IMG/VR virus record: IMGVR_UViG_3300025150_000003
Location: 1 to 64,000 of that record
Length of the DNA: 64,000 bases
Origin: a virus
Direction: 5' to 3' (one strand)
Under the pieces are notes generated by a model. The model ran no database searches and had not been told where the DNA came from. It saw nothing but the letters and a program-made list of their open reading frames with translations. Made by a program: the position numbers and the translations under genes. Shown here piece after piece: positions 2,631-39,941 of the stretch. Position 1 is the stretch's first letter, and each line of letters begins with the position of its first letter.

Positions 2631-2983
2631 TGTGTGACCGCTTGTACTTCGTCACCCGGGCTGATCTGTCCGAGGGTCGCAGAGCTGCCCAGCTCATCCA
2701 CGCCATGGACCAGTGGTCCCTCCAATTCGGGCCTCAGCAGGGCACGGTCATCGTCTACCAGGTCCCCAACGAGGAGAGTCTGCTGAAAATGTTGCCCGAG
2801 GGTGGACAGACCGTCCTCTGGCGTGAACCGGACCTGGACAACCAGGCCACGGCTTTCGCCACAGACCAGGGGAGGATGGACCTCCCCCTGCTCGGACAAC
2901 GACCCCCCACGCCAGAACCCCTATCGGGTGGCGGCGTAACGCCAGGGGGGACCCGGATTGGGTCCCCCTTCATGCGCGGGTAG
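2630..2983 (+). CDS. Peptidyl-tRNA hydrolase, Pth2-like
   Basis: LYFVTRADLSEG..AAQLIHA and WREPDLDNQATAFA...LPLL motifs. Confidence 0.75.
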   Translation: MCDRLYFVTRADLSEGRRAAQLIHAMDQWSLQFGPQQGTVIVYQVPNEESLLKMLPEGGQTVLWREPDLDNQATAFATDQGRMDLPLLGQRPPTPEPLSGGGVTPGGTRIGSPFMRG

Positions 2984-3170
2984 CTCATCGGTAGAGCATC
3001 AGGTGTAGGCTGAGGAAGGCAGTAGAAGGGTGGGTGGGGCCGGAACCTTCCATCTGGAACTGCACGGACCAAGCCTCGGGCTGAAGCCTTGGAAGAGGGT
3101 CGCTCCCCGATCTACGGCCGACACCGAAACATCCTGAAGGGAGGAGGTTCGATTCCTCCACCGCGTACTA
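2974..3170 (+). ncRNA. tRNA-like RNA with 129-nt insert in place of the anticodon loop
   Basis: Acceptor GCGCGGG/ACCGCGT, D-arm GCTC-ATCGGTA-GAGC, stem TCAGG/CCTGA, T-arm GGAGG-TTCGATT-CCTCC. Confidence 0.7.
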
Positions 3171-3498: not shown

Positions 3499-3888
3499 TC
3501 ATCCCTCGCGTCCGAACTTTTCCGATTCCAACTCCTCGATCTCGTTCCGAAGCAACCAGTACCGGGCCGTCCAAGCGTGATCCGTCAGGTGTACTCCGAA
3601 GGACGAGATGCAACAGACGTGGACGGAACACAGGGGCCGCAAATGCGGTGGCGCTGAGCAGGACCCGTCCTCGCGCATCAGAGGATACCTGGGATGGTCG
3701 GTGGGGAGTAGCACTGTGTTCCAGTTCCACTTCGCTTCCTCAATCACCAACAGGCATACGGACTTGTCACAGCAGGAATGAGGTACACGGCACCCCTGCG
3801 CGTGCTTGCCCGAGCACATCGTCTGAGAGTGTTCTGCGATCTCAGCGTAGAGTTGGATCAACCGAGCGTTGATGTCATCGAGAGCCAA
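3499..3888 (-). CDS. Cys-rich hypothetical protein
   Basis: C..C..CC..C and C...RPLC..HVC pattern. Confidence 0.65.
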   Translation of the reverse strand: MALDDINARLIQLYAEIAEHSQTMCSGKHAQGCRVPHSCCDKSVCLLVIEEAKWNWNTVLLPTDHPRYPLMREDGSCSAPPHLRPLCSVHVCCISSFGVHLTDHAWTARYWLLRNEIEELESEKFGREG

Positions 3889-4265
3889 AAGGCCTCCAGT
3901 ACCCTGAGGTACGATTCAGGGTCCAGCCCGTAGGGGTCGAGGGAGTAGCCGTGGTTCATCTCGACGAGAGCGGTCTCTCCCGTGCTCAGGACACCGAAGT
4001 CGAGAGTGTAGCCAGCAGGGGAGTCACCCAAGGCTTGGATGGCCTTGTGCACCACATCAAGGTCGAGGGTCCGTTGCCTCTCCCCATCGTAGAACTGCAC
4101 CCCTACCAGGTCACTTTGAACCACGAAGCATCGCCACTCACTAAGCCACGTCACGATCTCGGAGGCCCACACCTTGGTGCTCAGGCTGGCGTAGTTGACC
4201 TTGAACCCCTCGTAGCCAAGATAGGGAGGGTGATCGGACTCGATGATGGCTTGGATGATTGGCAT
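3858..4265 (-). CDS. ATP-grasp (DUF4343-like) protein, short and possibly truncated
   Basis: SEWRCFV, YTLDFGV...TALVEMN.GYSL..YGL. Confidence 0.6.
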   Translation of the reverse strand: MPIIQAIIESDHPPYLGYEGFKVNYASLSTKVWASEIVTWLSEWRCFVVQSDLVGVQFYDGERQRTLDLDVVHKAIQALGDSPAGYTLDFGVLSTGETALVEMNHGYSLDPYGLDPESYLRVLEAFWLSMTSTLG

Positions 4266-5035: not shown

Positions 5036-5315
5036 GCACGGGGTTTGCACCCGTACTTGGTCTGTTTCTCAACAGATGCCTCTGTATTTTGGGCTAGCGG
5101 GAGGCTCATGTTCTGCGGGGATGGTGGGTCCCCCTTTGAAGTGGCTGGAATCGAACCAGCTAGAGAGGGTTTCATTTGCCCCCTGGCCCGCCATGGACGA
5201 TCACAGGCGGGACCCACCAATACTGGCTTCCGCTCCCCCCAACCCCAAGTCAGAGGGTGTTGAGTCCCCCCACTGAAGGGGGGGCTCCCCAACGAGGGGA
5301 GAGGGCGTGCCAGTA
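5036..5315 (-). ncRNA. Structured ncRNA with T-loop hairpins
   Basis: Own class I motif; stems TACTGGC/GCCAGTA and TGGTGGGTCCC/GGGACCCACCA; T-arm GCTGG-TTCGATT-CCAGC; no credible ORF. Confidence 0.6.
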
Positions 5316-5318
5316 ACT

Positions 5319-5349
5319 CGACTACGCGAAAGGGGTCAGAGTTGAGCCC
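5319..5349 (-). promoter_or_regulatory. Class I promoter-like motif (upstream of ncRNA)
   Basis: GGGCTCAA-N15-CGTAGTCG. Confidence 0.75.
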
Positions 5350-6869: not shown

Positions 6870-7478
6870 ATGTACATAGTGCTAGAAGGCGTGGACGGCT
6901 CGGGAAAAGACACCCAAGCGGACCTGCTTGTCCAGGGACTAGGACCTCGGCCACTCCTTCGAGTGAACGAGCCGGACTCCACATCACCCACCGGCAAGTT
7001 GCTCCGAGAGATGCTCAAGGAGGGCACCTACATTGAGGCTCACGCCGCGATGTTCTTGGCCGACCGGATGGCCATGCTGTCCGAGAAGGTGCGCCCAGCC
7101 CTTGCCGAAGGACGTGACGTGGTGAGCGTCCGTTCCTGGATGAGCACTCTGGTCTATCAACAGGAAACATGGCCCCTGGACTGGTTGATGGACCTCCACA
7201 GGCAACTTCCAGCACGAGCCACGCACCTGATTCTGCTTGACCTCGACCCCGAGGTCGCACTAGGTCGGGCCACCCGGCGACCGGGACACAACGAGTTCTA
7301 CGAAAAACTCGACATCCAGAAGCGAAACCGTCAGCGTTATCTTGACCTGGTCCCTCATGCAGGGCATTTCCTAGCACCCGGCGGACGGGTAGGCGTCATT
7401 GACGCTAACGGGGAGCCCAAAGAAGTCCACATCCGCCTCATGGAATGGATCGCCCGTTTCAAGGAGGACATGGCGTGA
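6870..7478 (+). CDS. tmk: Thymidylate (dTMP) kinase
   Basis: IVLEGVDGSGKDTQ P-loop, FLADR, STLVYQ, LLDLDPEVA. Confidence 0.92.
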   Translation: MYIVLEGVDGSGKDTQADLLVQGLGPRPLLRVNEPDSTSPTGKLLREMLKEGTYIEAHAAMFLADRMAMLSEKVRPALAEGRDVVSVRSWMSTLVYQQETWPLDWLMDLHRQLPARATHLILLDLDPEVALGRATRRPGHNEFYEKLDIQKRNRQRYLDLVPHAGHFLAPGGRVGVIDANGEPKEVHIRLMEWIARFKEDMA

Positions 7479-11214: not shown

Positions 11215-11778
11215 TTGAGGGTGCTACCTGTAATGCCCCCAGTGCTCGAACATCACCAGTTTGTTGCTAAGGTCTTGAGTTGTGATGCCTGTAGGCTGCG
11301 ACTGAGCCGCACTCACCCAGCGATCTGTAGAGGCCCCCAAAGTGCTCCTCTCATGATTCTTGGCGAAGCTCCGGGTGTCGAGGATGACCAACGCGGTCTC
11401 CCTTTCGTCGGTCCGTCCGGGCTTCTGTTGAGCCATGCCCTACTCCACGCGGAGATACCCGAGGATCAGGTCTACATCTGCAACCTCGTGAAATGTAAGC
11501 CCCCACGGCACCAGATGCCCACCAAGGAGGAGATCCGCTCCTGCCACCCATGGCTCCTACATCAGATCATCACAGTTCAGCCAAGAGCTATCGTGACTGT
11601 GGGCAGGACCGCTACCGCCACCCTAACCGGTCAACGAAAGGTTTGGGCTGAGGATGAAGTTCTCGTCTGCTCGTTTGATGAACGAACGCCCGTGTACCCG
11701 ATTTGGGGGGCTGAACGGCCGAACCATCGGGTAGATGTAGAGCAACTGAGACGTGCCTGGCGGGAGGCCACAACATGA
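11215..11778 (+). CDS. Uracil-DNA glycosylase family 4
   Basis: CxxCxL, GEAPG, PFVGPSG, NLVKCKPP. Confidence 0.9.
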   Translation: MRVLPVMPPVLEHHQFVAKVLSCDACRLRLSRTHPAICRGPQSAPLMILGEAPGVEDDQRGLPFVGPSGLLLSHALLHAEIPEDQVYICNLVKCKPPRHQMPTKEEIRSCHPWLLHQIITVQPRAIVTVGRTATATLTGQRKVWAEDEVLVCSFDERTPVYPIWGAERPNHRVDVEQLRRAWREATT

Positions 11779-14460: not shown

Positions 14461-14552
14461 AATCCTGTAGGCGAGTGGTCGAAGCCAAAGGACTCTAAAT
14501 CCTTCGGGGCATTGCGCCCCCACCGCAGGTTCAAACCCTGCCAGGAGCACAA
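14461..14552 (+). tRNA. tRNA with CUA anticodon (amber suppressor type), long variable arm
   Basis: AAGGA-CT CTA AA-TCCTT; GCAGG-TTCAAAC-CCTGC; acceptor only 5/7 paired; CAA instead of CCA. Confidence 0.75.
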
Positions 14553-39737: not shown

Positions 39738-39920
39738 GAGAGTAATAGGCAGGCAAGCCTAGCCTGACCGGGATGCCGGTCAGGAGACAAAACGAGAGGA
39801 CTTTTCTCCTGAGATGGTTTGATTCCGCCCCGCCTGGTTGGCTCGCCTTGGACACAAGGCTTACAGGGCAAGTCTCAGGAGAGGGACCTAACGTTCCTGG
39901 TTCGAATCCAGGTGCTCCCA
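39738..39920 (+). ncRNA. tRNA-like RNA with expanded central domain
   Basis: Starts right after class I motif; GAGAGTA/TGCTCCC, AGGC-AGGCAA-GCCT, CCTGG-TTCGAAT-CCAGG; internal long stems. Confidence 0.65.
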
Positions 39921-39941
39921 CACCCTAACCCACGAGAAGGA

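Follow-up and report, generated by a model that had tools for sequence, protein, structure and literature searches.

The window analysed here is the first 64 kb (64,000 nucleotides) of a 169,413-bp IMG/VR virus record (IMGVR_UViG_3300025150_000003; 60% G+C). CheckV estimates the completeness of this 169-kb record at 32%, which implies a phage of about half a megabase. Within the window we describe a plus-strand operon that ends in a tRNA-shaped RNA (2974–3167, + strand). A sigma-70-like sequence, TTGACA-16-TATGGT (1959–1986, +), is the sole promoter-like site found upstream of the operon, and no terminator-like site was found between it and the RNA. The first gene, ORF X (2109–2630, +), encodes a conserved helical protein whose homologues lie directly upstream of the Pth2-like gene in relatives; its AF2 model reaches a pLDDT of 91.5 and has no PDB fold match at E<=0.001. 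The second gene (2630–2983, +) has a start codon that overlaps the stop of X, and its ORF runs uninterrupted from the ATG at 2630.

The product of the second gene is recognised only by fold search, Pfam and PDB sequence searches being negative. It has 126 homologues, mostly on long uncultured-phage contigs, and the AF2 model built from 36 homologues (pLDDT 95.2) gave top Foldseek matches that were all Pth2/Bit1 (probability 1.0, E 4e-4, TM ~0.6). The modelled structure thus points, at the level of fold, to a peptidyl-tRNA hydrolase 2-like enzyme, and the "Pth2 operon" named in the first-pass annotation, with one promoter-like site before it, is right in that sense. The conserved part of the ORF covers about 92 residues and ends near 2900, while an unconserved tail crosses a hairpin and runs into the first 10 nt of the RNA. 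This G+C-rich hairpin (2946–2969, +) has no U tract and stands 4 nt (2970–2973) before the RNA 5' end, and analogous hairpins precede the homologous RNAs in L028, L046 and L050. Its probable role is to shield the 3' end of the mRNA once RNase P has cut.

The wider neighbourhood holds further genes. In several relatives the X/Pth2-like pair is preceded by a GNAT acetyltransferase gene (PF00583; L026:262–711, L046:1200–1595), and genes for a histidine kinase with a response regulator and for PspA are also syntenic there. Near the RNA locus in the window are an R2K-clade ATP-grasp domain protein (PF18299, E 3e-30; 3858–4265, −) and a thymidylate kinase (PF02223, E 9e-30; 6870–7478, +).

The RNA was delimited, from the acceptor 5' end to the discriminator base, by sequence reading, ARAGORN -i, a covariance model (R1, 207 bits) and covariation. 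Its 5' half (2974–3003, +) comprises the acceptor 5' strand, U8A9, the D arm, A26 and the 5' strand of the anticodon stem, and its 3' half (3133–3167, +) the anticodon-stem 3' strand, variable loop, T arm, acceptor 3' strand and A73. As read from the sequence, the acceptor strands GCGCGGG (2974–2980) and ACCGCGT (3160–3166) form a stem with a G1.U72 pair and a G7xA66 mismatch. U8A9 lies directly 3' of the first of these strands and is followed by the D arm GCTC-ATCGGTA-GAGC (2983–2997), A26 and the anticodon stem TCAGG (2999–3003)/CCTGA (3133–3137). The variable loop AGGGA (3138–3142) has the 5 nt of a class I shell, and the T arm GGAGG-TTCGATT-CCTCC (3143–3159) and the acceptor 3' strand lead to the discriminator A3167, after which no full CCA is encoded in the window RNA. 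The acceptor, D and T arms and the conserved tRNA residues (U8, D-loop GG, T-loop TTCRA) are therefore all present, and the D arm, T arm, 5-nt variable loop and anticodon stem earlier described as canonical can each be read directly from the sequence. Between the two anticodon-stem strands lie 129 nt (3004–3132) instead of the expected 7, with the same boundaries as were first proposed for this insert, and a 7-nt anticodon loop with U33 and purine 37 is absent from the window RNA.

Standard tools pass over this gene. Default ARAGORN does not call it at 2974–3167, and Rfam RF00005 has no match at 2974–3170, either at the gathering threshold or at E<=10. Of the tRNA checks listed in the first-pass annotation, default ARAGORN and Rfam were therefore silent, and ARAGORN with introns allowed (-i) called a tRNA-Val(aac) only by forcing a loop with A33. 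Folded on its own, the sequence has an ordinary energy (z = −1.0), so the evidence has to come from its relatives.

Homologous RNAs occupy the slot right after the Pth2-like gene in at least 10 related giant-phage contigs; the members are L028, L026, L046, L050, L059, L061, L063 (two in tandem), L064 and L067, and the insert varies from 104 to 130 nt across homologues. The model R1, built from the three closest sequences, gives eight members scores of 72–207 bits. Covariation was assessed on an alignment of these eight, in which 93% of cells are paired. The alignment was fitted to the model, which inflates the pair counts; RNAalifold, run afresh on the same alignment, re-predicted the same architecture of shell plus three-way junction. 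Double changes are found in 37 of the 55 base pairs, against 20.5±2.7 in shuffles (0/500 reach 37) and 9–14 when the partners are slid. The acceptor stem, the anticodon stem (TCAGG/CCTGA, CCGGG/CCCGG, CCGTG/CACGG) and six of seven insert helices all contain compensatory pairs, the exception being the apical stem of arm I, and the D stem is invariant across the aligned members. G1.U72 is kept in 7/8 members and A73 in 8/8, partial CC(A) is encoded in relatives, and the homologue in L050 reaches 37.2 bits against the Rfam tRNA model when read with a giant insertion. Because the homologues are syntenic and covary, chance is excluded, and this comparative evidence demonstrates a real, conserved and structured RNA gene without an anticodon loop in an X/Pth2-like context. 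The covariation on homologues that had been suggested as a check is thus clear in outcome.

The family has a restricted distribution. Large-insert members were found only among closer relatives, and in five larger relatives with the Pth2-like gene R1 detects only normal-length tRNAs and no large-insert member, so that the RNA is dispensable for the Pth2 module. The locus had no blastn match among 50,697 GenBank phages, and the phage's own 169-kb genome contains no second copy of the RNA. Within IMG/VR, single-protein scans with both flanking ORFs returned no relatives, the exact 21-mer of D arm and anticodon stem had no match, and the pattern GAGGAAG..ACGGACCARGCC gave just chance matches in coding DNA. 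Neither the RNA nor its flanking genes occur in the fragments examined of the PolA relatives L005–L009, and the ARAGORN -i calls made there were rejected as junk.

In the eight-member alignment, RNAalifold folds the insert into a three-way junction with two arms. Arm I (3007–3076, +), defined by RNAalifold and covariation, begins with the helices AGGCT/AGCCT and GG/CC; a purine-rich internal loop separates these from GCAGT/ACTGC, above which sits an apical hairpin that varies. In this arm (helices 4–7) 14 of 20 pairs have double changes, and its basal helix reads AGGCY/RGCCU across members, with Y and R covarying. A 6-nt palindrome (GGUACC, CGGCCG, GACGUC) often forms the apical loop, but some members lack it, so that a dimerising kissing loop is only conceivable. 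Arm II (3077–3126, +), seen by covariation in helices 8–10, starts with a basal CGG/CCG helix; beyond an internal loop of facing purine strands (GAA//GRA) a further helix leads to the apical hairpin GGG-TCGCT-CCC (3097–3107, +), whose loop U(C/A)GC(U) is conserved; this pentaloop motif has a single occurrence in the 169-kb record. An unpaired strand of 5–6 nt leads back to the anticodon stem across members, and its sequence in the window, AAACAT (3127–3132, +), is conserved only in the closest relatives. Among the internal pairings put forward earlier, GCAGT/ACTGC is supported by the comparison, GGCTGAGG/CCTCGG gives way to AGGCT/AGCCT plus GG/CC, and GAAGG/CCTTC falls within the apical hairpin of arm I, which varies between members and whose register is uncertain.

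Against Rfam 15 the insert has no match, either in the window (E<=10) or in nine homologous loci (E<=1), the group I intron, ribozyme, tmRNA and Y RNA models included. Tertiary contacts were also looked for. A pseudoknot partner for the UCGCU loop, AGCGA, is found only in the L059/L063b/L061 subgroup and was rejected as inconsistent; no loop-loop covariation between arms I and II was found; and the internal loops were rejected as k-turn or loop-E motifs, their strand lengths misfitting a standard k-turn. Resemblances to RNase P RNA were noted for GAGGAAG and CAAGGCCAAG (CR-I and CR-IV) and for the UCGCU loop (T. maritima P17 loop). Kinship with RNase P RNA was rejected, because these motifs lie on different strands in different members and the Rfam RNase P models are silent, and we treat the resemblance as coincidence.

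Several other tRNA-like genes are present in the window and in related phages. An intact CUA (amber-reading) tRNA with a long variable arm lies at 14461–14550 (+; ARAGORN "Pyl", Rfam tRNA 45.7 bits), and a CUA or UUA suppressor tRNA is found within ~1–2 kb of the Pth2-like gene in most of ~75 relative loci. Arrays of tRNA look-alikes stand beside the Pth2-like gene in L063 (1873–2131), L064 (1885–2286), L077 (1346–1423) and L111, L117 and L123 (1340–1423). In these arrays the anticodon stem is elongated and closed off by UUCG, UCGG, GUAG or CUAG, or the loop has 6, 8 or 9 nt; most of the look-alikes score above the Rfam tRNA threshold, without a usable anticodon. Beside a distant Pth2-like gene, L122 carries at 2294–2438 a gene resembling tRNA-Ile(GAU) with a ~70-nt insert just after the anticodon loop, and at 2501–2680 a complete Ile(AAU) anticodon arm together with a ~100-nt variable-region insert containing GGCG-AUAGCUA-CUCC. 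Elsewhere in the window, ARAGORN -i reports a 184-nt tRNA-like gene (39738–39921, +) whose T arm (CCTGG-TTCGAAT-CCAGG) is perfect, whose acceptor has 6/7 pairs and which contains long internal helices such as TCTCCTGAGA/TCTCAGGAGA; it was rejected as a member of the Pth2-linked family, since R1 does not match it. On the minus strand of a gene-poor stretch (5036–5349) are hairpins that resemble T arms (GCTGG-TTCGATT-CCAGC), with a tail ending in CCA behind them; the stretch has neither an Rfam match nor an ARAGORN call.

The pentaloop hairpin also recurs outside the family. We scanned IMG/VR for GGGTCGCTCCC with a T-arm motif 30–60 nt downstream, 20 bases being specified in total, and obtained 43 loci, where chance would give about one at this collection size. 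Several of these are other tRNA shells, in which the hairpin lies inside a 143-nt A+T-rich insert (L133/L159), in an insert made of arm II only (L136) or in an anticodon-stem insert (L146). In L153 (IMGVR_UViG_3300027790_000038) an GGGGTCGCTCCCC hairpin sits inside the D loop of a tRNA-like gene (~11460–11560), whose anticodon stem is capped by GGG-UAGC-CCC, giving two copies of the module on one shell. At further loci the hairpin is found just upstream of ordinary tRNAs in arrays. The stems flanking its fixed core covary, with at least 3 extra pairs in 13/32 loci compared with 7.6% at random positions.

A similar hairpin is present in phage T4, whose tRNA cluster encodes two stable RNAs without an assigned role (PMC3014915). 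Nucleotides 9–23 of one of them, species 2 RNA (rnaD), read CCGG-GUCGCUA-CCGG, with the same loop as the window hairpin, and match GGUGG-AUCGCUA-CCGCC of L028. This segment, invariant in T4-like phages, is the best-conserved part of rnaD across T4-like genera, and no other part stays at 94–97% identity in the most distant of them. Across these genera, the first 34 nt of rnaD, including the hairpin, and its 3' end, ATCACAGCAGAAACGGCGCACC, are nearly invariant (T4 rnaD at L177:1554–1672, −; L178–L181) while the middle diverges, and in GenBank records the gene is often unannotated or overlaid by "hypothetical protein" calls. A model of arm II (R2) has no match in T4 at E<=1, and R1 matches only true tRNAs in the T4 locus. 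We estimate the chance of finding such a hairpin in rnaC plus rnaD at ~1%; with this chance, and with nothing similar beyond the hairpin, the link to rnaD is suggestive and serves as a lead only.

Taken together, we suggest, with somewhat better than even confidence, that the locus encodes a non-decoding, tRNA-shaped stable RNA: a scaffold or mimic that is carried by the operon, processed by tRNA enzymes and left unspliced. It would be transcribed as the last element of the X/Pth2-like operon, and its acceptor, D and T arms would let host tRNA enzymes excise it, with RNase P cleaving at 2974 and 3' trimming followed by CCA addition after A3167. The product would be an unspliced RNA of ~194–197 nt. 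Its anticodon stem is predicted to open into the three-way junction with its two conserved arms, and because this junction replaces the anticodon loop the RNA should be unable to read codons. The shell would then serve as processing handle, stabiliser and tRNA mimic, and the arms may present surfaces to a protein or RNA partner, above all through the U(C/A)GCU pentaloop hairpin and the two purine-rich internal loops. The RNA always lies beside the Pth2-fold enzyme, suppressor tRNAs and anticodon-less look-alikes, and on this genomic context its partner most likely belongs to tRNA or translation surveillance. In bacterial initiator tRNA a weak 1-72 pair alters handling by Pth and EF-Tu, and by analogy the G1.U72 pair of seven out of eight members is notable. 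Processing, stability, lack of splicing and the scaffold or mimic role are inferences. Of the functions considered at first pass, that of a functional RNA in a tRNA shell fits best, given an insert that is both conserved and covarying and a hairpin module that is found again in other shells.

Other readings have to be weighed against this one. The insert lies exactly between the two anticodon-stem strands and might be an intron of 120–130 nt, removed by self-splicing or by phage or host enzymes, with ligation of the halves into a working tRNA; the ARAGORN -i call of tRNA-Val(aac) and the conserved, unclassified tRNA "introns" reported in Lak megaphages (PMC6784885) would agree with this. We consider it unlikely on several grounds. 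The group I catalytic core (P3–P8) finds no Intron_gpI match, nor does any ribozyme model match, in the window (E<=10) or in nine homologous loci (E<=1). The smallest known group I introns are ~200 nt (Azoarcus), so that the insert has ~60% of the minimum size and was correctly described as short for this class. The alignment has no conserved U at −1 of the 5' junction and no conserved terminal G at the 3' end. In 6/8 members (the window RNA and 5/7 others) no single excision yields a 7-nt loop with U33 and R37; the two members with a possible canonical loop give different anticodons, and the ARAGORN identities of the homologues (Val, His, Ala, Arg) are inconsistent. RtcB (PF01139) and the splicing endonuclease EndA (PF01974) are missing from the fragment, which is weak evidence given that the record is 32% complete, and the putative junctions lie at the ends of a plain helix, where a bulge-helix-bulge intron would have 3-nt bulges; for protein splicing the picture is less clear-cut. 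The same loci also carry short look-alikes above the Rfam tRNA threshold with an anticodon stem capped by UUCG, UCGG or GUAG; shells lacking an anticodon are therefore kept for their own sake. With no intron match, no restorable loop in six of eight members and capped relatives alongside, splicing of the RNA appears unlikely, with some probability left for a mechanism of a new kind, and the proposal of an intron-bearing tRNA repaired by a phage ligase is not borne out. At the other extreme, the locus might hold a dead tRNA gene broken by an insertion or an ARAGORN false positive, junk calls by ARAGORN -i arising about once per 50–80 kb in these G+C-rich genomes. Position and structure are nevertheless kept across at least 10 contigs with compensatory changes, and the insert is not repeated elsewhere in the 169-kb genome; this reading has next to no probability and is, in our assessment, effectively refuted by the covariation.

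Two further readings concern function. A tRNA-shaped decoy or sponge for a host tRNA- or RNA-directed defence enzyme, with the pentaloop as bait, would suit the context of a Pth2-fold enzyme and suppressor tRNAs and the display of the hairpin on many different tRNA shells. MazF-mt7 recognises the pentad U^CGCU and requires its third G (PMC5408214), and the loop U-(C/A)-G-C-U with its invariant G resembles this pentad. With ~20 toxin motifs known, five matching nucleotides are nonetheless weak evidence, no defence gene is linked to the locus, and the RNA offers no anticodon loop to anticodon nucleases; the anticodon-nuclease decoy first envisaged might thus hold only as a tRNA decoy in a broader sense. 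E. coli, the host of the rnaD-bearing T4, is not known to possess a UCGCU-specific MazF, which also counts against it, and we hold the decoy reading to be doubtful. Its stronger form, in which the conserved, G-C-closed pentaloop hairpin is a portable bait or recognition module on phage tRNA-shaped carriers (the window RNA, many other phage tRNA shells and T4 rnaD) and captures or diverts a host RNA-targeting factor, for example a MazF-type endoribonuclease with U^CGCU-like specificity, is quite improbable; if true, it would explain what T4 species 2 RNA does, a puzzle dating from the 1970s, and establish a new kind of counter-defence based on RNA. Lastly, the RNA has the topology of tmRNA, in which a large insert likewise takes the place of the anticodon arm in a tRNA-like domain, and in two distant relatives (L093, L105) the Pth2-like gene has a real tmRNA downstream of it, so that a miniature rescue RNA entering stalled ribosomes and working with the Pth2-like enzyme might be imagined. 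ARAGORN finds no tmRNA at the locus, however, and the RNA has G3-C70 instead of G3.U70, a G.U being found only in L063b. It also has a full 4-bp D stem (GCTC/GAGC), which bears out the earlier remark that the RNA is unlike tmRNA in keeping this stem, and its insert is taken up by covarying helices, with no conserved reading frame or resume codon. SmpB is lacking from the 169-kb fragment (32% complete), and overall we rate this reading as very improbable.

Many giant-phage tRNA genes are missed by standard tools or labelled as intron-bearing or of undetermined type, and at least one such group is, by covariation, a selected family of non-decoding tRNA-shaped RNAs, tied to a Pth2-fold enzyme and suppressor tRNAs. 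Counts of giant-phage tRNAs, and inferences of genetic-code change drawn from them, should leave out such look-alikes. The family adds a defined, testable member to the few phage tRNA-like RNAs without an assigned role (T4 RNAC, RNAD and the Lak "introns"), and the short hairpin that T4 rnaD also carries can be mutated in a cultivable model phage.

Comparison with known systems places the RNA among several partial relatives, and no published description of a Pth2-linked large-insert tRNA-like RNA family was found in the literature searched. Like tmRNA, it combines a tRNA-like domain and a structured insert for the anticodon arm with a translation-rescue context; it differs in having a full D arm, no tag frame or G3.U70 and half the tmRNA size, and neither ARAGORN nor Rfam detects a tmRNA at the locus. 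YrlA and other bacterial Y RNAs (RF02553) are likewise non-coding, carry a tRNA-mimicking module and occur in phages, but they are permuted, with their ends on the anticodon side and the acceptor closed, whereas the window RNA ends at the acceptor as a tRNA does; RF02553 has no match in the window, and YrlA matches in relatives only span junctions between adjacent tRNAs, far below threshold. The tRNA genes with group I introns of cyanobacteria and Azoarcus are likewise bacterial-type and interrupted in the anticodon loop, and the window insert departs from them in core, splice-site signatures and size (~60% of the known minimum). T4 rnaD resembles it as a stable phage RNA encoded with tRNAs and bearing an RUCGCUA hairpin near its 5' end; it has no obvious complete tRNA shell and no similarity beyond the hairpin.

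A further comparison is with the tRNA genes of Lak megaphages, giant-phage genes with conserved large inserts that were called enigmatic introns and are unclassified by Rfam (Devoto et al. 2019, PMC6784885). The Lak tRNAs were taken to be decodable, with anticodons assigned and the inserts treated as introns, whereas the window RNA has no restorable anticodon loop, and Lak phages are A+T-rich gut phages, in contrast to the 60% G+C of the window phage. On the sequence features compared here, the RNA is a distinct variant, with a class I shell, G1.U72 and a three-way-junction cargo bearing the UCGCU hairpin.
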